Part shown: in pieces, positions 1-28,571 of the stretch
Layout of the letters: each line of letters begins with the position of its first letter
Position numbering within the stretch: position 1 is the first letter of the stretch
IMG/VR virus record: IMGVR_UViG_3300031992_004562
Coordinates: 1-64,000 of that record
Source of the DNA: a virus
Taxonomy: Duplodnaviria > Caudoviricetes
DNA length: 64,000 bases
Direction: 5' to 3' (one strand)
Made by a program: the position numbers and the translations under genes
The notes under the pieces: generated by a model
Told to the model about the DNA's origin: nothing
Database searches by the model: none
What the model saw: the letters and a program-made list of their open reading frames with translations, nothing else

Positions 1-195
1 ACTGAATTTAGAGAGTTATATCTTAAGTCATTGGAAGAATTTGAGTTATAGCCAATTTATAAAGATTTGATTGAACTATATTATGAATTCAAAAAGTCTA
101 AACTTAAGTATAGACTTTCTATAGATTAGTTTAATCTATAGTTTTCTAGTTTAAATTCATCTAAGTCTAACGTTAGTGCATTTATATTTTCTTGA
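1..195 (+). CDS. tnpB: C-terminal end of a TnpB-like RuvC nuclease (5'-truncated by window edge; paralog of 18023..19417)
   Basis: With TAG=Q, frame 1 reads TEFRELYLKSLEEFELQPIYKDLIELYYEFKKSKLKYRLSIDQFNLQFSSL..., matching the C-terminus of 18023..19417 (LYLKSLEEFNLQPNYKDLIELY...YRLSIDQFNLQFSSL). Ends at TGA 193-195. Confidence 0.85.
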
Positions 196-367
196 AGCTT
201 TTGTTCTAAAAGTTATATAATTATATAAATGTTAATAATTTAAACACCTAAAACAAACTTTTTATGATAAATTAGAAGAATATTCAAAGCTTAAAAAGGA
301 TTGGATTTCTGGTGGTAAACCAATTCATAAAGATATTATTGAAACTTCTAAGATAATAATTGATAGA

Positions 368-9750: not shown

Positions 9751-12700
9751 TTACATTGGTGCAGGTCCATCACCCAAATCAGATTCACGGGTTAAAACCT
9801 ATCGTCTATCATATTTTTTAATATAATTGTCTCTCTTTTTAGCAAGATTTGTTATTCCTTCATCAACTTTTTCTTGAGTTGCTTGGCTTTTATCTTTTAT
9901 ATTTTCCTATGTTTGCGAAAGTTTTGCATTAGCATTATTTAATTTAGAAGGTTTGTTTAATTGTTCCTATAAGGCTTCATTAAATTGCTTTTCAATTAAT
10001 GCTTTATTTTCAATAGGAATAGCTTTGATAATAGATGAATATGTTCTAAATTTTTCTATCGCTTTTTGAGCAATTTCATTTTCATTTATATATCCCATTA
10101 ATAATTGATTTACCATCATAGGTATTGTATTTTCTACTGTTTCTTGAATTTTCTTAAATATGTCTTTAGCAATTTCAAGAGCAATTTTTAAGAATATCAT
10201 TACATCAATATCATCAGATGATAAATTAATCATTAATATAATTGGTGCTGGCCACATACCACGAAGTGCAATTCCAAATACCATTAATACATTAACAATT
10301 GGAATCATTACAGGTGGAGCAATTGGAAGATATATAGCAGGAAGTGGAAGTGGAACCATAAATGGTGGAATATCAAAACCATCTGCCCAATATATAGGAA
10401 TTAAAGTAAATAATGTTGCGTTTAGCATATATACTAACCAATATTCATAATCAAATATTGTTATTGGGTCATTTTCTCTAATATCTTTAACATCTTCCAA
10501 ATCAATAATTGGGTCTTTTATATTATCTTCTAAATTGTCCATATCTTCTTCAACATATGGAATTTCCGCAATAGATTTTTTTGGTGTTTTAAATGGATTA
10601 GTGAATGTATATAATTCATAATTTGTATTATCAACTTTAATATTAAGGCTTTGAGGCCATTTAGCATTTGAATTTAAACCATTTGCATAATCTTGAATAT
10701 CTTTTATGGCTTTATCAACATTATACGTTGATTTATATTCAGTTATAATCTTTTTCCAAAACTCATCAATTTTCTTAGCTTCATCCTTGATCATCTAATA
10801 AAACATATTATTCTTTGCAGCATCTTCAAAAAATTGTTTTGTTTCACTATCCAAATTACTTGTTCCTTTTTCTTTAACATTTATTAAATATGTAACAATT
10901 TTCTCATCTGAATCAAGAAGAGTCATAATGCTTTTAATAGTAGCATTTTTAATTTGTTCATTAGTCACACCCATTGGATTACTAGACATTAAAGATTCAG
11001 TAATCTTTTTATATACAGCATCATATAAATCATTAAAATTTGTATATTGTGTAGAATTATATGTTATTTGTTTTTCATTACTAATATATAATGCCTCTAT
11101 ATTTTTAACAGTCTAATCTATATCTGAACCACTATAATCACGAATATATGTTGCATTTTCAGTGTCTTTATATAAATTGCTAACCTTTGTTTCATCATTT
11201 CGTATATCAGAATTACTAATATACATAAATAATGTTAATGCCTATTTGCATACTTCAAAATAGTCATTATCTCTTTTATCATTTTCAGCTTTATTAATAT
11301 CTTCTGTTGTGGCTTTATTGTCTAAACGTAATTTATCTTTTTTAATTTTATTTAATATTTCCTATGTATTATTTCTATCAATATTGTTTTCATTTATATA
11401 CTTATTTAAATAATCATATGCATTATTGACTTTTTGCGCAAATAACCCATTAAGTATATGTTCATTATAATATTTTGTAAATACATTTATCATTGTAGTG
11501 ATATTCTACTTTTCATATGCAAGACGAATATCAATAATATTTTGAACTATAGTTCTAAATTCATTTATATAATCAGGACCATCTTCATCTAAATTAATAT
11601 TATTTATATTTTTTACCATATCAGTGGCGCTAAATAGGCTACTATCCATGTTTACATGATATCCTGCAGATATAGATGCATCTGGTAAATGCAATTTATC
11701 TATATCAGCTTGAATATCTGACATACTAATATTAATTGTGGCTGTTTGTTTTTGAGTATCTGGTATTGATCTTAATAAATTTATATAATAGTTATTATAT
11801 TCTAATGTATCATCACCAACTGTTCTTTTAAATGTAATATTTGGATCATATGCAAGACCAATACAATCAAGATATTGAACATCACCATATACACTTTGAT
11901 TAACTGCATTTTCATATGAATTTATAGCTAATTCAACCATTAATTTTCTATCATTAAGCATATCATCTTTTAGTTTTTCTGCCTTACCAGGAGAAATATT
12001 AACTACTTCTTTTCCACCAACAGTTGTGTTTTCATCTTGGCCAGATAAATTAGATTTAAGATTTTCACTCTATGTTTTAAGTTTTTCAGCAAATGCATTT
12101 ATTGATTCATCATATTTTTTAATTATTTTATCATATGATGTATATACAGTATTTGCTTCTGCAGGTGCAACCATAAATGGTGATCCTGCAACATTTGGTT
12201 GTGATTTACGATTTGCATTTACCAATAGTCCAGGTAAAACTGATAATGGCATACAATTTATAATAAGTGCTTCCAACTCAGTTGCCTTTTTAAATTTCTA
12301 TTGTAATGACATTACATCATTTATATTATAATCTGATGCAGAACATTTAACTGGATTATCTATGATAATATGTCTACCAGCCATTGATGGATATAAATGT
12401 TTATAATCACTATTAGATTCATCAATAGATCTAATTATTCCTGTATATTGTGTTCTAATTGGAATTTGTTTGCCATCATCTTTAATATATCCTAATATAT
12501 CTCCTTCAACTAAAGTCTAACCAGGCTTAACAACTAAATCATAATTAACTTTATTACCAAGTGTATATTCATCACCAAATTCAACAATTACTGCACTATC
12601 TTCTACAGGTTTGCTTTTGCTTTTACTTTTATCTATTGAAGAAGGCTGACATAAATTTAAATCACATATGCTTAATGTCTATTGGCCTTCAAATTCATCA

Positions 12701-15540
12701 GATGTAAATGTAATAGCATCTAAAAATGATTTAGTATCATATTTTTCTTCTGTCATTTCAATTTTAGGCTCTTCATAATATGGATTAACATTTTTCTTTC
12801 TAGCTCTAAGAATTTCACTAGAAATTGTTGATCTTCTTTGTTTATCATAATAAACTTCACCTAAATCTCTATTAATTTCAATATTATCTAAACCAATAGA
12901 TGTTCCATCATTATATCCACCATGTTCTATTCCCCAATCATCAAAATATAATGTAGTTCCTTTTAATAAATTTAATGGATAATCTGGATTGATTGCATGT
13001 ACTGCACAATAAGTATTTAATGTCGTTGTGTCTAATATTCCAATTGTAATAAATCCTGATTCGTCTGGCTATTGTCCAAATTCTGATAACGCCCAATCTG
13101 CCATTTCTTTTGTTCTAATTGTAAAGAAATTTGTGTCTTTTAAATTAATTAAATCTTTAAGACCATTAATTAATTGTGCTGCCTATTTTAAAGCATTTGC
13201 TAAATTTACACGCTATCCTGTTCTAACAAATTCTTTATTAATCATATAATTTTCAAGGATATGTGCAATAACCTATAATATCTAAACAATTGGTTGTAAT
13301 ATCTTTAAGAACTAAACAACCTCATCAAACATTAAAATTTTTCTTTTACCAGTTTCTGGGTCATATAAAACAGATTCAAGTAATGCAGCATCAATATTTA
13401 TATTAACTTTTGTTAGCTATGATTCTGCATTTTTGGCAGCATTCATAACATTATCTGTTGCACCAGATGCCATGTTTTCTGCATTATCTAACATACCAGA
13501 TGCTTGGCCTTTAGCCCCATTTAATGTTGACATTGCTCCATTCTTTATATCTGTACCAGAATTTTTAGCTTTTGATAATAAATCATCTTCAATATTAGTT
13601 TCAGATGATGCCTAATTTGATTCAGATTTTTTTCTAGCATCTTGATTAATATTAAATGTGAAAATATAAAATTTGGTTACTCCATCAACAATTGCTTGAA
13701 TTTTTATTTCAATTGTATCATTTATATCCCATGCATCTTTAAATGCGTCTTTTATTTGTTTAGTTGCACCATTATTAAATATTTCTTTTGTTCCAGATCT
13801 AAATGATTTAATAAATGATGATATCGCTAATAAATGCAATGATGGATTTTTATTAATTGTTATATTAATATAGATATTTTTATTTTCATTTGACTATGTA
13901 TATGTAAATGCCTAAGTTTCAATTACTGGAATATCACCATTAGCAATTGCATTCATATCCATATTTAATCCTGCACCAATAATATTTACAGCACCCTAAT
14001 CTACCATTCCTGCAACAATTTCAGAACCAACAGCACCTGCAGTATTTGCTGCAACTTCGCCTGTGTCAATATCACCATTAATTGAATTATTCATTGCATT
14101 ATCTGCAAACCCCATTGCTTTATCAGAAATGCCTGCAACTGTTCCTTTTGCATCTTGAATAACATTTTCAGAAAGAACTGTGCCACCAGCATTTCTAATG
14201 GCCTCATTCTATTCATTTATCATATTGTCTGTAAATGCTTGAGCATTATTCTATACTTGGTTTCCCATATCAATAGCTGTTTCTACTAATGTTCCTGCTG
14301 CAGCCATACCAAGTTTTTTCAAATCCTCCATTGTTATGCCTTTAGCATCCGGAGTTAAACCAAGCATTTCAAATATTTCAAGAATATTATTAATAGTATT
14401 TAATAAATCCATCTAATTTTCTATAGATGTATTCTATAATTGTGAGATGAATTGTTTAATAGATTCTATTGTATCTTTAATTATTAAAATTTGGAAAGCA
14501 TTCTAAATCATTATTGATTGGTCTTTAAGCCAAATCATTAATTTTTCTTTAGATTGTTCAATTGATAAATCTTTAGTTTTTTCTTCCCATTTCTTTTTAG
14601 ATTTTTCAATTCTTTCCTTTTTTAATTTTTCTTTTTCCTCTTTTGTTAATTTTTGTTTTTTCTTCTTTTCTTCTTGAGTTTCTTCTGCCTATTCTTCTTG
14701 AGGTTGTTTATTTTTCTCTTCTTTCTATTTACGTTTATTTGCAGCTGCACGCTATATCATACCAATATATGCAAAACCTTGATTACATATATTTCTAATT
14801 TCTGATAATGTGTGACCAGTATATTTTTGAAGAACAGGATCTAAAGCAGGTTCAATAACTTCTAATATATTATTAACAGATACTACAATATTATCCAATA
14901 CAGCATCATTAGAAGTACATATCATTGAATTATAAAATATAATTAATTGTTGTTTTAAGGCTTCATACTATGCTTTTAATTGATTAATTAATGAAGCCGT
15001 TAATGCACTTAAAGAATCTTTTACAGATGGAACACACATCACATCTGCATCCTACATTTTATTAAGTTTTAATAATAGTTTTTGAATATTTCCAATAATT
15101 GTTGCAATAGATGTTGCATATTGAAGACCCATTTTAGCTAATTCAACAGTGCCCTATGTAATTTGCATTCCTGTTTTAATAGCATCTATAACACCACTCT
15201 ATCCTAAAACGACTTCAATTTCATCTAATATTATATTAACTAATTCTTCAGGTGCATTTAATCCCATAGCTGCTAATTGCTATGTGTATCCTTGAAGATT
15301 ATTTGCTAAATTAGTTAATCCCTATTCGCCTGTTAGATTTACAGCAGCTGCAATATTATCAGCAATAATTTGGTCAGTTGACCCAGTGCCAATGTTAATA
15401 CCTGTTGATGCAACAACATCACCTGCACCTGCGCCAGCAGATATAAGCATATCTTCACCAAAATTCTATGTTGATGTTTTTAAACCATCAGCTAATTGTT
15501 CAGATTGCCCACCTTGTTCTATTTCTAATTCAAAATCCAT
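9751..15540 (-). CDS. very large TAG-recoded protein (about 1,929 aa), probably virion-associated
   Basis: Five ORF-track fragments (13612, 12070, 11506, 10795, 9967) share one frame and end in TAG. The ATG overlaps the RuvC-like stop (TAATG). Hydrophobic Pro-rich C-terminal segment. Not every codon was checked. Confidence 0.8.
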
Positions 15541-16202
15541 TATTTAATAAATCCCTCTTTTTTAAGCATTGTTTTTAATGCCCAATAACTATCAACTATA
15601 TCATCAACACAATGTATATATGCAGTTTTATTTATAAAATCATTTGTTTTTAATCCTGCACTAAATCCATTATTAACTTCTTCCAATTTAAATGCATCTA
15701 TCATTGGTGTTTTAGATGTTTGTTTATTTTTACCTGCACATCCAGCAACAGATTTTAATGTAATTGGAGAATATGTATAAAGACCATATAATCTATCTTT
15801 ATAGTGTTCATATAATTTACTTAATAAAACACCTTTATATGTCGCCAAATTAAGTGCAGCATCACCCGTTGATCCATATGATAAGCCTTCTGATGAAATA
15901 TAAATTGGCGTATCATTAGGAATATCATACTTATTTAAAAATTCATCTATCGTTTCAACAATCAAATTTGCAAGATCTGTTGATCTAATTGTATGTTCTA
16001 AAACAATTTGTGAATTTTTATCTTTTGTTGATACTGCATCTAATCCACGAGAATAGCAAAAAACGCCATGGTCTTTATAAATCTAAACATGTTTTTCTGC
16101 TAAATCTACTGGCCATATAAAATGATAAAATTTCTAATCATATAATGCAGTCGCAGCAGGTTTATTCATACTAAAATCAAACCCAATAAATACACTTTTC
16201 AT
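15540..16202 (-). CDS. RuvC-like Holliday junction resolvase (TAG-recoded, 220 aa)
   Basis: Read-through restores N-terminal MKSVFIGFDFSMNKPA (first catalytic Asp); also SEGLSYGS, SPITLKSVAG and DDIVDSYW. Confidence 0.85.
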
Positions 16203-16274
16203 AATCGTCTTTCAATAGTTTTATTATTTATTGTATAAATAAGTTAACTGTAAGTTTTAATAAATATATTGAAT

Positions 16275-16997
16275 ATGAAATTATATAATTTACATAAAAT
16301 ATTATTTGAAAATAATTCTGGTGAAGAGTTTTATTTTAAAGATGAATGGATTCCAACTGATAAAGATTGGGAAACAATGATTATGAATATGAATAATCAT
16401 AGTAATCTTGATAATATCTTTAGAAAAACATCAACATTTAATGTAGATAAAATGGTTAGATGCTATCTTGTTGCTAAAGTTTTAGGATGGCCAAAATTGG
16501 AAAGATATCATGAAACTATGCGAAGAAGACTTAAAGATGCCGGAATATTTTATGATGAATTTGAAATAATAGATAATCAATTTATAGATCTTCCAGAAGT
16601 TTGGAAAGAATTAATTCTTGATTTAGAATAGTATGACAAACTTGGAGGGGTTGCATTAAGACATCAAGATATGGGAGAATTATGTGATGATAATGTTTTA
16701 TTTAATGCTTTTAAATATATAGATAAACATATTAACACTATATAGTTTTCTAAAATCTCATTAGATCGTGGGGATTTTCATCCAAATCAAAGAATAATCA
16801 AAATTAATTTTAGAAATGGGTCAATTGCATATATTAAAGTTGTAAGATGGAGTGCAAATGATCATTCTTTAAAAACCCGCGATTATTTTGATAATAATAT
16901 TAAAAAATCTAGATTTTCAACATTATTTCAAATATATTTAAATAGATATATTAATGAAGTAATAATTGATCCAACATGGACACCTGAATATTTATGA
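16275..16997 (+). CDS. hypothetical late protein (TAG-recoded, 240 aa)
   Basis: Open through 2 TAGs to TGA 16995-16997, which overlaps the next ATG. Confidence 0.75.
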
Positions 16998-17761
16998 AAT
17001 TAAATAAACAAATATTAGAAGCTATTAATAGAGGCATATAGTTGGCACTCGATGATTATGAAGATATAGAAACTAGTAATTCTATATCTCATAATAATGA
17101 TGTCATAAATAGTGATGATGTAATTCAAACAGAAATAGATTTTTGGGATTAGTGGGTTGATTTAGGCCTTCCTTCTGGTACATTATGGGCAAAATCTAAT
17201 ATTGGTGCAGATTGCGATGACTATGAGGAAAGCTGGTATGGAGAACATTTTGCATGGGGTGAAACTGAACCAAAAGAAAAATATGATTGGGAAACATATA
17301 AATTTGGAGAAGCAACATAGCTAACAAAATATTGTTATGATACTAAATACAGTGCAAATTATATTATTCCACGTACAGATGATTTAAATGAATTACAACC
17401 AAAAGATGATGTAGTATCAGTATTATTGAAACATCATTCACATATACCTACAAAGGAATAGATGATAGAATTATTAAATTATACATCGCAAACAGAAATA
17501 TTCAACTATAATAACATAGATGGTTTACATGGAATTATATTTACAGGCAAAAATAAAAAATCAATTTTTATGCCAATGGCCGGATCTATGTCGTCGTCAG
17601 TCAAAGTTTCAATGAATGCAAGATATTGGACATCTACACTATCAAAAGAAACTCCTATGGATGCATATTATTTAGATTGGGGACGTGGCTATCAAACCGG
17701 TTAGTTATTACATGATTATAGATGTTATGGTTTTTCAATTAGACCAGTTTATAATAGATAA
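16994..17761 (+). CDS. CLec-fold (VDLGLPSGTLWA, DUF1566/FISUMP-like) protein with shared leader (TAG-recoded, 255 aa)
   Basis: WVDLGLPSGTLWAKSNIGA...FAWGET...IPTKEQMIEL...YWTST...GFSIRPV. Confidence 0.85.
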
Positions 17762-17790
17762 AAATAAGAAGAGGTAAATGCCTCTTCTTA

Positions 17791-18000
17791 TTAATTTAAT
17801 ATTGGAACTTCTTCTAATGATTCATATAATTTAGATTCATAAACTCGTGTTAAAACATGAAATTGTGAATCTTTATTTTTTTCTCTAATGGCTTCAGCTG
17901 CTTTTTCTGCAACTTCTTTATTAGTGAACGCTGAAGTTTCTGTCATCATTGTAACAGTTCCATTCATTGCTCGCATTTCAACATTCCAAACTGTTTTCAT
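17791..18000 (-). CDS. small hypothetical protein
   Basis: 69-aa ORF; bidirectional terminator hairpin at about 17766-17789. Confidence 0.7.
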   Translation of the reverse strand: MKTVWNVEMRAMNGTVTMMTETSAFTNKEVAEKAAEAIREKNKDSQFHVLTRVYESKLYESLEEVPILN

Positions 18001-18022
18001 AATGTATTTGTTTTATAATAAT

Positions 18023-19417
18023 TTATAATAAAATATTCTTTTTATATATAAACTAACTTATATAAGATTTAGTTGAAAACAAACTAGAAAACTATAAATT
18101 AAACTAATCTATAGAAAGTCTATACATAATTTTAGACTTTTTGAAATAAGCATATAGTTCTATCAAATCTTTATAGTTAGGCTATAAATTAAATTCTTCC
18201 AATGACTTAAGATATAGCTTTTTAAAACTAGTCAAACTTGGTCTAACTATATTCTTTTTTATTTCTTTTTGCTTAGCTATATGCTATGCATTAAATTCAT
18301 AAGCTCTTCTAGATAGTTCTATAGATGCAAGAACCATATCAGGTAAATTTAAGCTTCTATATAAAAAGTTTCCAATAAAAGAACTATATTCTGGTTTGAC
18401 TTTTAATAGTTTGATATTAAATATATTACATCTTTTAGTTAAATTATTAACAAACTAGTTTCTATTCCAGGAATTGTTAACTAGTTTATTATAATGCTTG
18501 CCTAATTCTTTATCAGAAGATTTTATATTTAAATCTTCTATAGAAACTATCTAACATTTATAATAAATTGCTTTATTAATTATATTTTTAACTATTTGAA
18601 TAGTTTCATAGTTTCTTTTATTTGAAATATAAACTCTTTCTTTAGAATCACTAGAAAATCCTTTTCCTTTAAGACTAAAATCTTTATCATTAAGTTCTTT
18701 AATAGAATAAATTCCAGATTTAATAACTTTAAATTCTGATTCTGATTTCCAATCAACTATAGACCAACCTATATAGTTTGGATTCATATCTATTCCAAGA
18801 ACTCTATTATTAATTTGTTTATATTGTTGTTTATTCTATAAAACTATAGTTTCATCAAACTAAATATAAACATAATTCTAGTCTATTTTATATGTTATTG
18901 GACAATCATCATTAATTTGGTGTTTATAAATTTCAATTAACTATTTTTTATAATTCTAATGAAGTTGTTTAGGAAGTTCAATCTAGATTTTTCTTTCTTT
19001 TAGCTTTAATGTTATAAACTATAAAGTTTCATCTAATTTAAATTTTCTATTTCCATGAACATTTTTCGTTCCTGAACTTTTTTCTCCAAAACTAGTTAAT
19101 GGAACTAATCTATTTTGTTTATATTGTTCTTTAGTTATTAAACCTTTTAATCTATTAAAGAAATTTTTCTTTCCACCAAATATAACTTTATTAGTTTCAT
19201 TTAATGAATATAAAATTTTAGAGTCATAATTAGCAGATTGAATAAACCATGAATCTAGTTTTTCTATATTATTTAATTTATGAGTATTTATTTTAGTTTT
19301 ATTTTGAAGACAATTAAATGCAACTCTATAAACTGAATTATATTGTTTAATATATTCATTAAGCAATAACTAATCTTCATTAGAAGAAATAAAATATTTT
19401 AGTTTTATAGTTTGCAT
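18023..19417 (-). CDS. tnpB: TnpB-like (IS200/IS605 accessory, Cas12f-related) RuvC nuclease, 464 aa, TAG-recoded
   Basis: ATG 19417 to TAA 18023 with about 15 in-frame TAGs; GNRKF, RuvC-I VLGIDMNP, RuvC-II IVSIEDL, VKPEYSSFIG, RuvC-III PDMVLASIELSRR. Confidence 0.85.
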
Positions 19418-19533
19418 TTATAATATATTAAATAATATCTTCTTTTTATATTTATCTAAATTTATTTTGAAAATATTTAAATTACTAAAATAATAAAAAA
19501 TATTATAATATTAAAAAGAATAGAATAGATTTT

Positions 19534-21165
19534 TCATAATATCTAATTAAATTCATATTTTTGTTCATATGTAGGGAAATTTTGTTCTTTATATATAGTC
19601 TTACGGGTTTTATAATGAGACCACATATAATTATCATAATATTTCTTTTTCTTATCTTCAGAATATCTTAAATCATCTACAAAATCATATAAAATACATT
19701 TCTCTTTTCCAGATGCATTTCTTAATCCACGGCCAATAACCTGTCTAACCATTCTATCAGATTTTGCAGAATTTACTAAGAATATTGATTCAATGTTTGG
19801 TACATCGATGCCCTCGCCGAATGTTCCAATAGATCCAACTATAATAGTTTTGCCATCATGATCTTCGGCCATGCATTTCTTATAATATTCTCTATTCTCT
19901 GATGGTGTTTTTCCATCAACATAATAAACATTCTTATCAGAATTGTCTTTTATATATTCTGCCATTTTTCTTCCATATCCACCTTTAACATCACAGAAAA
20001 TTATCAATGTATTCTTTGCCATTTTTATAGCATAATCGCCTATAAATTTTAAACGAGTATATGAATTATTTACAAACTCTTGTTCTTGTTTTAATAATTT
20101 GCTTCCAAGAGTCATATCTTCGTCATTTATGGCTTTTTGGGCTCTATTATAATATAATTGTCGTTTTTCATCCATTGTGGCCCAATTCATTAATTGGAAT
20201 ACAACATAAATTGGTGTAGCTGCGTGTTCTTGATTAATTAATTGGTCAGATGTTAATTTATAAACTACAGGTCCAATATAAGATTGAATTTCAAGATTCG
20301 TTATACTATTTTGTTTTGGGAACGTACCAGTTACACCAATAGAATATCTAAGATTAATACACTTTGTCAAAATCTTTTTAATTGATGTTGTTCCTGAATG
20401 GTGGGCTTCATCACAAATACATGCACCAAAATCTTTAAAGAATTCATCACCTCTTTTGCATAATGACTGAAATGTACCAAATAATATATTACATGATTCA
20501 ACACGTTCTTTTTCAGCTTTCTTTAATCCAGATCTTAAAACACCTATCTCCCAATTATGATTATGTTTTGCAAGATATGATTCATAATCTTCATATTTTT
20601 CTGCTGATTGATTTGCTAAGTCAACTGATGGAACAATATAAAGAACTTTCTTGACACCCATATCTACAAAATACTTGAATAATATAAATGATATAAGTGT
20701 TTTACCAGCAGATGTTGAAATTTCACCACAGGCTTTTCTATATTTAATTAAAGTATATGCTGCTTTAATCTGATATTCATGTGGTCTAAAATCGACATAA
20801 TCCTCAATTTCGCCATCATCATTTTTAATTGGCATTTTAGCACCTTCAAACATATTGTCAACATATATTTTAAATGCTTGATAATCCAATTGAAAATTAT
20901 TGACGTACTCAACCATTTTTGGTGTCATTGTTGCAGTGATATTACATTGTTTGCAAAATTGCAAAACCTCCAACCACAAACCAATTGGCACCATTCCATA
21001 TTCATTTATGAAACAGCGGTCAGTATTAATATATGACATCTTCTTTTTAAACAACCACGCATTCTCAATTTCTCTTGTTAAAAAATTCTTTAACAATTGA
21101 AGTTCATACGGGTAATCAGAATTACATACCATATATTGGTTGTCATATGTAATATCTATTTGCAT
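19534..21165 (-). CDS. uvsW: UvsW-like SF2 DNA helicase
   Basis: STSAGKT, IVPS, DEAH, GVTGT, GTFGEGID, QVIGRGLR and LYDFVDD motifs; TAG read-through adds QIL before TGA. Confidence 0.9.
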
Positions 21166-21394
21166 TTACGTCTAATTAGACAATATTATTTTATTATTAT
21201 ATAAGGTTTTTAGACTTTTGTTTTTATGTATGTCTGACTGCAAAAAAACTTTTTTGCCCAGTGGACGTAAAATAATTACTATGTAATTAACTGAAAGATA
21301 AACATTTTTCTAGTTTAACTAGTTTTTATATCCCACCCTCTCACATAAAACAAAAAATAAGATTCTTAAATTTCTCTAAGAATCTTAAATTATT

Positions 21395-22423
21395 TTAAAA
21401 ATCAGTTCTCTGACGACGATTGACAGAATCTTGATTCAGTGCATCCGACATATATTCTTTAAAAATATCATAACAATATTCAGGATTAGACAATTTATAA
21501 ACTTTAACATTATTCCATTTTCCAATTTCTGAATCATTGTTGATAAGAATATCAATTTTATGTTTGCCTTTAAAACGTTTATTCATTGTATCTTGAATTT
21601 GATAAACACCGTCACGATCTCCTGTTCCTTCTATTTTAACTAAATCACCATAAGATAAATTATATTGCTTCATCATTGTTCTTTCCATCGCAATAATTCT
21701 ATGAGATTCTGGATCTTCAAGATTTAATTTGAACATTGAAGCTGTATTCTAAACATCAGAATTACACTACGATTTTTTAGCATGATAAACAGTTACTTCA
21801 GTATCATTACATAATAATTTCCATTGTGGTTCCATTTTATCTTCTTCATCTTCATCATAGATATAAAAATGTTCGGCTTGAACAATATTACTATCATTAA
21901 TATATCCTAATTCTCTTACCTATGAATCAGTTAATGCAAATGATGATAATACAATAGTTAATAATGTGCCAATTGTAGTAGCTTCTACAGCGTATTTTTT
22001 AAATGCACGCTTAATATCTTCAAATGATTTACATTTTCTTAGTTCTTTTATAAATGAATGAATACTAAATTTTGAATATTCATCTTCATATGATTCAAAA
22101 ATAAAATCATTTTTCATTTCTAAAACTACATTATATCCATATTTACGTGTAGGGATTAATCTAATTTTAGCATTTATTTTTATATTGTTAATCTCTATCA
22201 ATAATGGATATTCATTTAAATATGTTTTATCATTATCGATATCATAATAATTAACCTATATGCAATTTCCTAAATCAACATTTGTTACTTCAGGAAGACT
22301 ATTAATATCTTTGGCTAAATTATATACATCCTATGTCATATTATGTCCATCAGTTGAAATATATTTGTCTAACCAAATTTTATTAATTTTTTCTATTATA
22401 TTATTGAATTCTGCTCTATTCAT
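21395..22423 (-). CDS. 3D-domain (lytic transglycosylase-like) protein, TAG-recoded, 342 aa
   Basis: Fuses 21920..22201 and 21395..21736; VTVYH..QCNSD..TAS, IIAMER, YGDLVKIEG, IQDTMNKRF and KIDIL are typical of the 3D domain; hydrophobic segment upstream. Confidence 0.75.
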
Positions 22424-25400
22424 TATTTTACATTATATGGTGATTTTAATTTTTCAGGATTTGATGAAAGATTAAATAATCTTCTATTAAATTCATATTT
22501 TTCTTTAAATTCTGTTAAATTGTTAATATGGTCAGTATCTGTACCAATTGATGGTCTACGAAGCATAAATGCATTTATTCCTTTAGTTTCATAATTATAT
22601 GCTATACGTGGTTCTATATCATATAATAATGTATAAGGAATCATGTTAGTACCATATGATGAATCTGTTAAATCTGTTAATGCATTATAATAATCTTTAT
22701 ATGCGCTAGTATCATCAGTTAATTCACCATTTGTGGATGTATTATTATTTAAGAAATTATCAAATGCAGAAACAATTCTATATGGAATAATACCTTGTTT
22801 ATCATAATATGGGAATTCCCAATTAATATCATATAAGAATCCTCTAAAGTATTCACCATTATTTGGTTCATCTTGTTTCATTGGCTCAATATTAACTTCA
22901 TTAATTCCAGAATACATATTAATATATTCATTATTTAATGATTTTACTTCACTAACGCTTAAAAATTTATTATTAATTTCAATATCTTTAGCATTTGATT
23001 CTAATATTTGTGTGTATCCATTTCCATATAAACTTAATACACCTGTATATGTATTATCATTCTTTTGATATTTTTCTGCATACCAATCATTCCATTTATC
23101 CATAGAATTAATTAATAAATCATCACGCAATTCAATTGATTGATCATCATATGCAAATACTGGAAGATTATTAATTTTCTAATCATATTTAGTACGAGAA
23201 TATTCTGTATCATTATAATAGAATGTGTATTTACCGTTTCTTATTCTTGGCTGCATTAAAGTTGAATGATATACTATACCTAAATATTTGTTGCCTTCTA
23301 TAAAATCTAATACATTATGTATATATAATTGATCATTTATTTTTGTTGATTTATTACCACTAATGTCAGTTTTCTTAATTAAATCATATAATGAAGTTGG
23401 TTTAACATTTATATTTTTAACGTTATCCTAAATATATGATTTTTTAACTAATAGATTTTTAAAATCATAATATATATTATCACGTATTGCAGATGCATCA
23501 AATACATATTCATTTGTAGAATATAAATTTGAATTAAAGAATTTAAGTTCTTTAGTTATCTATTCTGTAATGCCATATTTATAAATATCACCATATATAT
23601 TAGTGTATGAAGATTCTACATCTTCAGGAGTTATGGTATATGATAATGGATTGAATGTGACATCTATAGAATCTGATATGTATTTATATTTTAATTTTAC
23701 TATATTAGATTCATTTGCATATGATTTTGTATCAATATTGCATAAATATGTTGATTGCGCGGTTTCACTAATAGATTCTGGAACAAGTGTATAGAAGAAT
23801 TTATCAGAATTAGCAACATTAATTTTTATGTTTTTAACATAGAATCTATAATACATATTAGCAATGATAGGATTGCCAAATTCTGTTGTTAATTTTAATC
23901 GTATTTTGTCCTAATCATTTTTAATTTTAATATCTGTCAAATTAATATAGACATCATTCTATAGGCCTGAATTAATATTTTTTGATGTTCTCATTACATT
24001 AATGAAATCCCAATCAAATATTATATATTTTCCATTACTTTTAGTTGGATTGGATTCATCTGGTATTTGGCCAAATTCATCGATAATCGTAGGATTATAT
24101 GATCTATCTTCATTATCATATAATTTAGAATTTACATCTATTGATATATTGTCATTTGTTAATGATGACTCAACGACATCTATGTTAAATTTTACATAAT
24201 TATTTAACTTTCTAATTTTTCTAAAATCATCATTTATTTCATATATTCCTCTAAATGTTCTTCTATCTGTTAATCTTTGAATGACATAATTATTTTGCCA
24301 ATCCAAATCATATTGTAAATTATGTATAGTTAAATCTAATGAAACATCTCTAACATTTGCAAATTTGCCCCAGCATTTTTTAAAGTCTGAAATATCAATA
24401 TCTAAATATGTTACAAATTGATTTGGCAAAACATTATTTTCAATTGAGTTAAATGTCTAAAGATCTGTGATATTTGAATGTGCATTTAATTCTATTTTTG
24501 GAATATCACGTGTATCTTCAAATCCTGGTTGAACAATATTAAAGTTTTCATAATAATATTCATCACTATCTTTAAACTTATATTTTACTGTTACCAAAAT
24601 TGAGCGCTATTTTGTAGATTCTACAATATATCCATTTTTTAAATTTGCAAATAGTGGTGATTCAATATCCTCAGAATTTGATGAGCCTTTTAATATATAC
24701 TCATCCATTGTTGTTGCAGCACTTGGATCACCTATAAATATTGGCAAGTTTGTAGAAAGATCTAATGTATATGAATTAATATTGTAAGGATATTTAACAA
24801 TATGCGACCAATCATTTACATATAAGTGTGCAATTCTTGACCTTACTGATATAGGTGTGCGATGATTAAACATAACTGAATCAATTTCTATATTATCATC
24901 ATTTGGATATATGTTTATTGATGCATTATTACATGCTTCAGCAGTGATATTTGAAACACTAAAAATAATATTTCCAGATAATTTTTCTCTTGTTATTTTT
25001 TGATCATCACCAATAATATCAATTTTAAATGATGTTATCTATTGTCTCTTTGAATTGATATAATCATTCAATGAATCATTAGACAAATTAGAAGATTCAG
25101 TAGAGAATTTTCCAATTGCACTATCATATCCAGTTGGCAATTTCATTTTTTTGATTTTATTTAAATATTTAAAATTTGAATATGTAATAGATAATTTAGA
25201 CAATTTACTATAATATTTTAGGCCTGTACCATATGATGCAAACATCTAAATATAATAAACATTATTATTAACATTTGGAACAATTTTTACAACTAATTCT
25301 TTTTCAGTTGATGCAATTGTATCTATTTTTTCCATATCTTTATTATATATGTCACATCCATAGAAATAATCATCTAATTTATCAACATTATAAAAATAAT

Positions 25401-27381
25401 CTTCTGCACTTATAGTCTATATAAATGCTGATGAGTACATACTATTATTATCATAATATAAATCAATATCCAATAAAGGCTTAATAAAATTATTTTCATA
25501 TAAAATAATATTTGAATCATACACCAATTTATTTAATTCAACATTTGTCAAAGAAGTTAAATTTGTAGTATTAACATATAAATTATTCATTTTTAATTGA
25601 ATTTCTGGATAACTTCTTGTCTCAGGCTTAGTCTAATTTATGTTAAATGCAAATTTATTATCTTCAATTTTCACATAAGCTTTTTTAGCAGACTTTCCAG
25701 GTACATTCATCATTCCAAATGATACATTTGAACATAACATTAATGGTGATTTTGTGTATTCATCTGCAATTGAAATAAAAGATCTATTTGATAATTTTTT
25801 CAAATCATTACAATATACGCTAATATCATTATCATATAATACTGCAACATTGTAAAAACTACATAAACGGTTATTTAAAATTTCATTAAATATTTTAGTA
25901 TCTAATGGGTCTTGCATTATAGCTGCAGCCTATAATTTATCAGGTGTACAATTTAATAAATCTTCTGTTATGACAACCATATATTCTATATTATTAGTAT
26001 TAGCAAATTGATATGTATCTGTATAAAAATATAATACGTCACCAACTTTATACTTACTACTTAATGTAAATGGAATAAAAATTTCAGTATCGTCTTTATT
26101 TAATGAATAATATATACGTGATTGGTCGTTTGATACAACTACTTCTGCACGGTTAGAATAATATTGGTCAGGTTGATTATAATAATTATTAAATTCAGAA
26201 ATTTTTGATGTAGATGAATTATTTATAGTTGTATAATTATCATTTTCTCTGTTAAATACAATGCGTGTTGGCATACCATAGTATGCATTATTATCTGAAT
26301 CTAATAAATCACCTTCTTCAATGATATTTTTACGTGAAGTAATAGGATCATTTTTATTAATTTTTTCTGATGATTTAAATACTGTTTCCCAATGTTGTTT
26401 TGCATTGTCTTTTTCGATGCCTTTTACATTATCTGGTATATATGCATTATATCTATTAAATGCACTTTCACCAACTATTTCACCTTCATAAATCTCTCCA
26501 TCTAATATTGCATTAGAAACATTATAAAAAGGATTTTTAATATCTTCACGTGTATATGTTATAGATGTATCTTTATAATTTATATAATATTGCGAACAAA
26601 CATCATTATCTAAAAATTGACCAGTTTCATATAAATCTCCAATAATAGAACTATTATAATATATTGCATCATCTGTATCATATGGAATTGCTGACCTATT
26701 ATCTCCTGGTGCTTGTTTTGCTATTTTAATAGCAGCATCTGGTGTAAATTCATAATGTGATATTTTATGTTCTATATTATGATACATTGAAGATAATGAA
26801 TTTTCAGATTGATCTAATGGTTTACCAACAGCTAAATCATTATCAAAATTATATTGAGAAACGTCTTTTAAATCACTACTTAGAGATGAAATCATAAATG
26901 ACATTGAAATAAAATCACCATTAATATCTAACTCAACACGCTTTGCATCATTAATTGAACCATCGACATCATTATAATAATCAATCATACTGCTATTTAA
27001 CATTGTAGATGATGATAATCTATTTCCAGTATAATAAAATGTTTTATAATTAATATATGGATTCTCAATATCATTTGATGAATCTTTAACAAATGCATAT
27101 AATGATGCATTATAATACTAATATAATTCAGCCTCTGTTGCCCTCCATGCAGATCTTGCAGTATCTTGAATTAATTTTTTTATATCATCATCAGGCTACC
27201 CATTTTCTAGCATTAATCTCTTAGCAGCATAAACATATGTTTCAACACTTATTAGCTATCCATCAAAGAAATCATTAATGAATCCAAAATATATAGAATT
27301 TCCTCTATCTCCAGTTTGTCCGGTCTAGCCATTAACACCTAAACCTGGAAGACCATGATAATTCTGTTTTAATAACTTCAT
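22423..27381 (-). CDS. very large TAG-recoded protein (about 1,652 aa), probably virion structural
   Basis: Seven ORF-track fragments share one frame; N-terminal collagen-like GLPGLGVNGQTGQTGDRGN; the stop overlaps the next ATG. Not every codon was checked. Confidence 0.8.
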
Positions 27382-27471
27382 ATATTATAAACATTTAATA
27401 TTTTTTTATTTATTTTCAGTATTTATGCAGTCTCATATGAGATGAATAAATAACTTTGATGGTAAAATTTA

Positions 27472-27614
27472 AACTTCTATTTTTTATATTCTATAATATA
27501 TTATATTTTTGTAACGTAAATGATTATGTTGCCAATGAAATCAACAAAAATTTATTAGTTATGAAAAATAATTTAACTTCTATTTTTTGGTTTGATAAAA
27601 AAGATGTATATTTG
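27472..27614 (+). promoter_or_regulatory. tandem early promoters upstream of the sigma factor
   Basis: Two copies of the 40-nt motif at 27472-27511 and 27575-27614. Confidence 0.8.
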
Positions 27615-27725
27615 TATGCAAAAGTGTAGAAATACATTTTTGTGAATATGCTATATGTTTAACTTATTAACAAATTTTTGAATTATGAAAAATAAAAGTT
27701 TGAATACATAAAAACAATTGATTAT

Positions 27726-28571
27726 ATGGATAAAGAAATTTTTGACATGATTAATGAAAACTCAGACCATGTTATCTTAAGTGATCAAGAAATTGATGAA
27801 GAAATTAATGCGCTTCTTAACGTGTCTGACGAAGAGATTCAAGAATCTCTAAACAAAGCTGAAAAGGCTGAAAAGAAAGCTGGGCGAAAAAAGACAGCTA
27901 CTTCTATTCAGGCTGATAAAATCGTTAATGATTTCCTTATGGATCGTAGCGAGCAAAACTGGAAAGCCCTCCAAGAATTTTTTTGGTATGGAATCAAACA
28001 ATACGCAGAAAAATATGTTGGAGAGGGTGATGATGCATATGATATGACTATTGAAACATTTATTAATGCGTATAACAATATTCATACATATGACCCTGAC
28101 AAAGCTAAGTTCTCTACATGGCTTTGGACTATTTGTCGAAATAATTGTTTGGGATTTATTAAACGTAGAGCACGAATTAATATTGTAAATAATGATTTGG
28201 GTGATATCTATGATTCTGAATTGGTTGGAGCTTCATATAAACAAAACAATTCAGAGTTTGAGAATGGAACATATAATAATGGAACATTCGAAACAAACAA
28301 TTTTTCAGATGTTACAAAAACATTGTATGATGTTTCAGTTGCAGAAATGGTTAACATTCCTGGAATTGGAGGCCAAATTCTTCATATGAAATTGGTTGAG
28401 GGAAAGAAAATTCGTGAAATTGCAGTTGAACTTTCAATGAATGAGTCAACTGTAAAAAACTATCTTTATCGTGGTAAAGAGAATCTAAAACGAATTCTTT
28501 CAATCAATCATAAAGATTTGGTTGATACATACAATGATATGAATGAAGCTTTAGAAGCTGGATAGTTATAT
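27726..28571 (+). CDS. sigma-70 family, ECF-like RNA polymerase sigma factor
   Basis: Region 2 (DAYDMTIETF...YDPDKAKFSTWLWTICRN) and region 4 HTH (KIREIAVELSMNESTVKNYLYRGK); terminal TAG-TTA-TAA. Confidence 0.9.

Follow-up and report, generated by a model that had tools for sequence, protein, structure and literature searches.

A TAG-rich TnpB-like gene in a Lak-like megaphage, best read as a tnpA-less copy from an IS607-family lineage

Described relatives of the window element

The insertion sequence (IS) ISCaje4 of Campylobacter phage CP220 (NC_027997) encodes the closest named relative of the protein considered here, the product of a tnpB-like gene at positions 18023-19417 (minus strand) of a 64,000-nucleotide stretch of Caudoviricetes DNA (positions 1 to 64,000 of IMG/VR record IMGVR_UViG_3300031992_004562, hereafter the window). 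The ISCaje4 TnpB shows 44.8% identity over 97% of the protein. Timms et al. (2010, PMC2853527) catalogued ISCaje4 as an insertion sequence whose ends are defined; it was not reported from the related phage CPt10. Like the window element, it is phage-borne and has a weak TIGR01766 score. However, it carries a resolvase-type tnpA, truncated to 80 amino acids (aa), upstream of tnpB and uses the standard genetic code, whereas the window copy is without tnpA and contains 15 TAG codons. ISCaje4 is filed under IS200/IS605, although the transposase of its family is of the IS607 type, and no RNA or nuclease function has been described for it. Since there is no TnpA at the window locus but an IS607 TnpA beside its relatives, the window copy is best read, from these gene arrangements, as a non-autonomous, tnpA-less derivative of an IS607-family (ISCaje4-like) lineage in large T4-like and jumbo phages.

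The TnpB of ISFba1 (PDB 8iaz) shares with the window protein its IS607 association, a similar fold (Z 13.8) and a D-E-D RuvC site. Its guide RNA is located at the right end, wholly outside the open reading frame (ORF) (Ren et al. 2024, PMC11061315), whereas the candidate scaffold in the window, also a right-end feature, lies within the final ~100 nt of the ORF. The ISFba1 protein has ~390 aa compared to 464 aa and no zinc finger in the window protein, the sequence similarity between the two is below family thresholds, and the window 3' region has no RAGATH-18 match, in contrast to the ISFba1-type right-end RNA (reRNA).

The best structural matches, over about 290-313 residues, are the ISDra2 TnpB (IS200/IS605) and AsCas12f. 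The ISDra2 omegaRNA overlaps the 3' end of its ORF, and in this respect it resembles the window scaffold. Unlike ISDra2 and Cas12f, the window family has no Y1 transposase link, no CRISPR array and no CxxC...CxxC motif, and its RuvC-I motif is DxNPN instead of the D-hydrophobic-G found in ISDra2 TnpB and Cas12f. The Fanzor2 proteins of giant viruses are likewise virus-borne TnpB relatives of IS607 ancestry with a similar fold (Z 12.2). Fanzors have a DPG motif and a relocated Glu next to the zinc finger (PMC10711439), whereas in the window protein, which has no zinc finger, the Glu is found in the usual xEDL strand. Finally, the free-standing homing endonuclease genes of T4-like phages (seg, mob) resemble the window element in their location between intact genes, their late-type promoter and their variable presence among related phages. 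However, the Seg and Mob enzymes are GIY-YIG or HNH nucleases, whereas the window enzyme is a RuvC nuclease of a putative RNA-guided type, and homing endonuclease genes neither recur at many unrelated loci nor have a transposase in the family.

The kind of system is already known, and the general picture of TnpB elements is unchanged. The variant features of this family and its active copies in Lak megaphages appear to be undescribed in the searchable papers, and the main Lak papers, as far as searched, do not mention transposons.

The inserted element and its transposase-bearing relatives

The window is assigned to a Lak-like megaphage using genetic code 15 on the basis of homologous contigs of ~540 kb and of matches in all published Prevotella phage Lak genomes; its parent record is a 111,625-bp fragment with an estimated completeness of 22%. 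Empty-site comparison and recurrence in other flanks delimit an inserted element of 1,535 bp (18000-19534, minus strand), which comprises a left end with the 5' leader (~117 bp, 19418-19534, minus strand) common to paralogous copies, the tnpB-like ORF, and a right end following the stop codon (18000-18022, minus strand) and finishing ...ACATTA. The original prediction, a reading of the window made without database searches, had proposed a check for empty sites between a uvsW-like helicase gene and a 69-aa gene, and precise ones were found in four relatives (L100, L102, L103 and L104) obtained from contigs encoding the 69-aa protein. In these relatives, the genes of the 543-aa helicase and the 69/70-aa protein adjoin directly, the stop codon of the former overlapping the start codon of the latter (ATGA), and the window differs by a 1,537-bp insertion exactly in this 4-nt overlap. 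The contig L003 was rejected as a further empty site because the 69-aa gene is also missing there.

TG dinucleotides flank the element at 19535-19536 and 17998-17999, and the scheme L-TG-element-TG-R restores the empty site exactly, leaving the helicase C-terminus (I-L-stop) and the ATG of the 69-aa gene intact. The junctions of L010 fit the same scheme with a TA dinucleotide, while those of L011 and L105 fit less well. Members of the IS607 family are expected to have no terminal inverted repeats, no target duplication and a 2-bp crossover, and such a crossover may have occurred here. The sequence TTATGAAAA is present at both junctions (19531-19539 and 17994-18002), and for this reason the element could be shifted by as much as 9 bp from the position given.

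The closest homolog, which is 91% identical in protein and 88% in DNA, has wholly different flanks and aligns with the window only over 17999-19551. This unit recurs in unrelated flanks in L105 and L106 (88% identity) and also in L010 and L011. Paralogs at unrelated loci of the same genome share ~115-125 bp before the ATG and ~45 bp after the stop codon followed by a sharp divergence, and near-identical units are found at unrelated loci of one genome (L010/L011, 92%; L016/L017, 91%). Four full copies together with decayed remnants (5 and 4 matches in all) are present in complete megaphage genomes, in agreement with the multi-copy nature originally proposed, and the published Lak-A, B and C genomes have 2-5 matches each, including full copies and fragments. 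Two sequence details of the element ends were also observed. In the closest homolog, the element is followed past its right end by a repeat of the right-end tip and 14 nt of flank (L105:3040-3120); the two repeats are 9 nt apart with a spacer resembling the start of the left end, and look like a miniature left-end/right-end remnant in tandem. The left end of the window element contains a 27-nt tandem repeat (19470-19522, 2 copies, 82% identical), perhaps a subterminal repeat to which the transposase binds.

The 111,625-bp record, estimated to be only 22% complete, revealed neither a Y1 nor a serine tnpA, and no CRISPR-like array lies within window positions 10000-28000, consistent with the earlier observation that TnpA and CRISPR arrays are missing next to the gene. 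The complete 553-kb Lak-like genome G001, which has four solo copies, also revealed no Y1 or serine tnpA. By contrast with the transposase-less family originally proposed, at least 11 distinct copies among those sampled, including those of Lak-A1, Lak-B7 and Lak-C1, are directly preceded by an intact IS607-family serine transposase gene, with TnpA scores of 172-177 bits on NF033518 (cutoff 110). Two more loci have partial TnpA matches only, one of them being the truncated tnpA of ISCaje4. Lak-A1, Lak-B7 and Lak-C1 each contain an intact 2.1-kb element encoding a 201-aa TnpA (5-7 TAGs) and a 449-aa TnpB-like protein (10-11 TAGs). The original prediction had allowed that a cognate tnpA elsewhere, combined with IS ends, would make these genes ordinary insertion sequence copies. 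Related copies have both, including discrete ends, and ISCaje4 is an already catalogued member, so the window copy is best regarded as an IS copy of the ordinary, non-autonomous kind.

The full 2.1-kb element is present in Lak-B7, B8 and B9 and missing in Lak-B1 to B6, with flanks of 99% identity. With 2-5 matches per Lak-A, B or C genome and such recent insertion differences, these elements help to shape megaphage genome variation. The comparison of Lak-B7 with Lak-B1 was rejected as a clean insertion, because ~34 nt of B1 are replaced (L093:934-3043 versus L094:990-1035). Parts of this ~34-nt stretch of Lak-B1, which is absent from Lak-B7, resemble the two tips of the element, and it could be a scar or an end-mimicking target.

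A family tree (a quick version with SH-aLRT support only) places the TAG-rich copies in one clade (SH-aLRT 96), in which copies with and without a linked TnpA are interspersed, and at least 7 changes of the TnpA label are required across the tree. This topology is most simply explained by repeated, recent loss of tnpA. No simple internal deletion of tnpA emerged when the full copy L012 was set against the solo copy L014; only the right flank is common to both. A link to Y1 transposases was rejected, as the sole Y1 TnpA found (in the 215-kb phage G003) is partnered with the canonical zinc-finger TnpB beside it. That pair is a canonical IS605 element with Pfam matches (L082:124-1868) and lies ~1.1 kb from a copy of the zinc-finger-less family, so that two TnpB lineages occur in one phage genome.

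The original prediction suggested a possible RNA-guided homing element. In a transposase-independent form of this model, TnpB and its omegaRNA would cut the empty alleles of co-infecting megaphages and recombination would copy the element in, as with the free-standing T4 homing endonucleases and with no role for TnpA in Lak-type phages. The four solo copies of G001 in the absence of tnpA are in line with this model, as are the clean insertion between two intact genes, the intact catalytic triad of a gene under purifying selection, and the fact that in other Lak phages a classical insert with an endonuclease gene splits the same helicase. However, homing converts allelic sites only and leaves the near-identical units at unrelated loci (L010/L011 and L016/L017) unexplained, the full tnpA-tnpB copies of Lak-A1, B7 and C1 are nested among solo copies, and the junctions may reflect the 2-bp crossover of a serine recombinase. 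We therefore regard homing independent of a transposase as unlikely. It overlaps in part with the non-autonomous IS607-lineage reading, because homing is a component of both, and the RNA-guided homing or inter-phage competition originally suggested may still describe what the nuclease does.

The nuclease and its candidate guide RNA

The tnpB-like ORF encodes 464 aa and is open only when TAG is read as Gln; the count of in-frame TAGs, originally given as about 15, is exactly 15. The RuvC triad D210/E294/D360, noted in the original prediction as intact, is invariant in an alignment of 48 diverse homologs, as are N212, P213, G349, R370 and R371. A profile of family members matches Cas12f chains (E ~1e-3) and places E294 opposite their RuvC-II Glu. 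The first catalytic motif (RuvC-I) is DxNPN, which is unusual for TnpB, the spacing between E294 and D360 is only 66 aa, and RuvC-III is followed by a C-terminal extension of ~85 residues (about 380-464). The protein scored 20.5 bits on TIGR01766 ("TnpB-related"), under the cutoff of 32, and searches of PHROGs and a single-sequence search of the PDB returned nothing useful. The family is large, as one collection yielded 2,987 matches and a second one 969 clusters at 50% identity, and dN/dS values of 0.07-0.23 between copies at different loci indicate that the protein is under purifying selection.

An AlphaFold model of the protein (pLDDT 89.6, pTM 0.83) matched AsCas12f (PDB 8dzj, 8j1j) with a Z score of 17.5 over 313 aa (residues 1-396, root-mean-square deviation 4.2), followed by the ISDra2 TnpB (Z 15.3), the IS607 TnpB of ISFba1 (PDB 8iaz, Z 13.8) and Fanzor2 (PDB 9b0l, Z 12.2), and Foldseek gave an E value of 1e-10 against Cas12f. 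The structural comparison aligned a WED-REC-RuvC architecture over the whole protein, beyond the RuvC core. According to this model, the gene product is an intact RuvC nuclease of the TnpB/Cas12f type, which agrees with the TnpB-like assignment made from the sequence, and it is probably RNA-guided. It adds a zinc-finger-less DxNPN branch to the TnpB/Cas12 radiation, which may be of interest for the study and engineering of compact RNA-guided nucleases.

The last ~100 nt of the ORF show DNA conservation far beyond the requirement of the protein. An omegaRNA-like scaffold was delimited inside this 3' end (18045-18149, minus strand) using covariation, RNAalifold and a covariance model. It includes, all on the minus strand, hairpin 1 (18116-18139), hairpin 2 with two TAG codons (18092-18114), a near-invariant AGTTTTCTAG (18084-18093) and a probable hairpin 3 (about 18051-18074) indicated by compensatory variants. 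Hairpins 1 and 2 are kept by compensatory, mostly synonymous changes, for example AGTCTA/TAGACT versus AGTCGA/TCGACT versus AATCTA/TAGATT, in which Ser codons pair with Arg codons. Hairpin 1 pairs in all 27 of the sequences compared, and both bases have changed in three of its pairs. When the 15 pairs are taken together across the 27 sequences, 91.4% of the cells can pair, compared to 44% or less with the partners slid, and none of 500 shuffles reached the observed value. RNAalifold recovered both hairpins unaided in the Lak clade, whereas the single-sequence fold of the 3' region was no better than shuffles (z -0.28), so that the hairpins are visible only comparatively. The covariance model R1 gave 79.5 bits for the window scaffold and found a single scaffold for each ORF and none without an ORF. 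The scaffold lies 20-140 nt inside the right end, with the hairpins at 90-140 nt. Since omegaRNA scaffolds of TnpB elements are typically found in such a right-end position, the 3' hairpins are likely to be an omegaRNA scaffold. It would be made as RNA with the flank used as its guide, and the guide, if any, would start in the flank at about 17999 (TGAAAACAG...).

The 3' part of a second, diverged copy is present at the start of the window (1-250, plus strand), with the last 65 codons at 1-195 and the remainder lost at the contig end. Its scaffold is at 84-188 (plus strand) and is followed by the right end. The last 65 aa are 69% identical to the first copy, and the three TAGs align with Q412, Q438 and Q442, as originally described. 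Hairpin 2 contains two of the TAG codons shared by both copies, which helps to explain the conservation of those positions.

The same features could be read as those of a protein that is not RNA-guided, a RuvC-fold DNA-processing accessory of the transposon, with the hairpins serving as DNA-level transposase sites or as signals for mRNA stability or translation. The missing zinc finger, the unusual DxNPN motif, the lack of a Pfam or Rfam family match, and the core matches of RuvC resolvases (Z 12.2) are all compatible with this proposal. However, the full WED-REC-RuvC alignment with RNA-guided TnpB and Cas12f proteins (residues 1-396, Z 17.5) and the usual omegaRNA scaffold position of the hairpins, 90-140 nt inside the right end, argue against it. 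So does the mode of action of IS607 transposases, which work on double-stranded DNA. We consider this proposal very unlikely.

Domestication of the nuclease by the phage in place of a selfish role, either for use against competing phages or host DNA or as a TldR-like RNA-guided regulator, is also very unlikely. A late-type promoter, strong conservation and a wide distribution in Lak genomes would be expected from such a gene, but copy number and position vary among genomes with 99% identity, copies decay, and there is no conserved syntenic locus. In addition, the catalytic residues are intact, unlike those of TldR, and each scaffold accompanies an ORF of its own, with the local flank as the presumed guide.

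Taken as a whole, the window element is probably a non-autonomous copy of IS607 lineage with an intact RuvC nuclease, an embedded omegaRNA, late expression and RNA-guided cutting of empty alleles. The tnpB-like gene would be transcribed from the element's own late-type promoter and translated only after TAG is read as Gln, and the 3' part of the transcript would be processed to an omegaRNA whose guide is the DNA just past the right end. The nuclease-RNA complex may then cut element-free alleles in sister or co-infecting genomes, at a target-adjacent motif (TAM) next to the flank sequence, and recombinational repair would restore or spread the element. Such restoration or spread through cutting and recombinational repair has been shown for other TnpB elements. 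New insertions would need TnpA supplied in trans from a full copy.

Several observations weigh against this combined reading. The zinc finger (CxxC...CxxC) of characterised TnpBs is absent between RuvC-II and RuvC-III, with no CxxC in the protein and no conserved Cys in the family; this TNB domain occurs in most, though not all, TnpB/Cas12 members. Pfam, including the TnpB models PF01385 and PF07282, had no match to the protein. No Rfam family matched the 3' region, and RAGATH-18, the RNA which accompanies characterised IS607 TnpBs (PMC11061315), was absent from it even at E values up to 10. No recurring TAM was found in the left-flank sequences, where the boundaries are uncertain by a few bases in AT-rich DNA. 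The repetition of 8-9 bp at the window junctions is atypical for IS607, although it may reflect a 2-bp crossover at a target resembling the element ends. Finally, with no tnpA in the 111-kb record or in G001, mobilisation in trans within such genomes is unexplained.

Promoter, genetic code and neighbouring genes

The left end of the element contains a promoter-like motif, AGATAAATA (19449-19457, minus strand). It includes the late-type ATAAATA pointed out in the original prediction, which was confirmed at 19449-19455 (minus strand), 38 nt before the ATG of the tnpB-like ORF. This heptamer is under-represented in the window (63 copies versus 104 expected), so that its presence alone is uninformative and its position is informative. 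The box ATAAATA(A/T)(A/T)AAAA, counted 12-50 nt upstream of the start (observed distances 16-38 nt), precedes 10 of 19 genes with at least two TAGs compared to 3 of 31 TAG-free genes (Fisher p=0.0019). From this positional enrichment, ATAAATA is typical of the TAG-containing, presumably late genes. The full motif AGATAAATA was rejected as a general phage promoter, since the 9-mer is single in the window and only the shorter ATAAATA is shared with other TAG genes. In most closely related solo copies, the box is kept 31-49 nt upstream of tnpB, and it is found within 80 nt in 32 of 66 non-TnpA loci. Several full copies have it upstream of tnpA instead, and distant copies in other phages have TTGACA/TATAAT-like boxes. 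Four TAG-free window genes (starts at 1817, 3074, 5588 and 51696) are preceded by TTTG...TAnnTTTG-like boxes resembling Bacteroidota host promoters. The two promoter classes of the window track codon usage, ATAAATA with TAG genes and TTTG/TAnnTTTG with TAG-free genes.

Under the standard code, the region 18023-19417 breaks into short ORFs, as had been predicted for a gene that host ribosomes cannot translate. TAG makes up 54% of the Gln codons in the tnpB-like ORF, the top share in the window. Many other window genes need TAG to be read as Gln, and one gene block is TAG-free. ARAGORN found no tRNA gene, and hence no TAG-reading suppressor tRNA, in window positions 1-64000, which places the source of TAG decoding elsewhere in the genome. 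The original picture of a late gene locked into the phage code holds as a description, given the promoter motif and the TAG share, and its code and promoter features look like those of a long-resident element adapted to its phage. The family thus provides a natural case of a mobile element with transposase and nuclease genes both written in a virus-specific genetic code. A more far-reaching view is possible but doubtful, namely that ISCaje4-like elements form a lineage specialised for lytic T4-like and jumbo phages, with a promoter matched to the resident phage (late ATAAATA in Lak-like phages, TTGACA/TATAAT-type elsewhere). With tnpA and tnpB both in the TAG=Gln code, the element would be active only late and never in the bacterial host, and its zinc-finger-less TnpB with an ORF-embedded guide RNA would act as an RNA-guided gene drive between co-infecting megaphages.

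The element is flanked by a superfamily 2 (SF2) helicase gene (19534-21165, minus strand), whose last codons (I-L-stop) are kept despite the insertion, and by the 69-aa gene (17791-18000, minus strand), which is not cargo, as its ATG overlaps the helicase stop codon (ATGA) in the empty-site relatives. The placement directly downstream of uvsW, as originally stated, stands for an SF2 helicase neighbour (ResIII/DEAD and Helicase_C domains; PHROG 'DNA helicase'), whereas its identity as uvsW is short of proof. With 26% identity to the gene annotated uvsW in phage CP220, the label 'uvsW-like' is reasonable. The only in-frame TAG of the helicase gene is at 19543-19545, three codons ahead of the TGA stop, and its length is nearly equal in both codes (540 aa with TAG as a stop versus 543 aa with TAG as Gln), which fits an early gene needing to work in both code states. 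The uvsW-like helicase gene of some Lak-type phages is interrupted by a ~1.6-kb insert (L008:4376-6000, L009, and Lak-B4 MK250023 385773-388686). Its 405-aa product has matches among the endonuclease and HNH families of PHROG, so that the insert resembles a classical insertion of the homing-endonuclease or intron type. Another RuvC-like protein, a Holliday-junction resolvase of 220 aa (15540-16202; PHROG 159, E 1.8e-6), is encoded 1.8 kb from the element and is unrelated to the TnpB-like gene.

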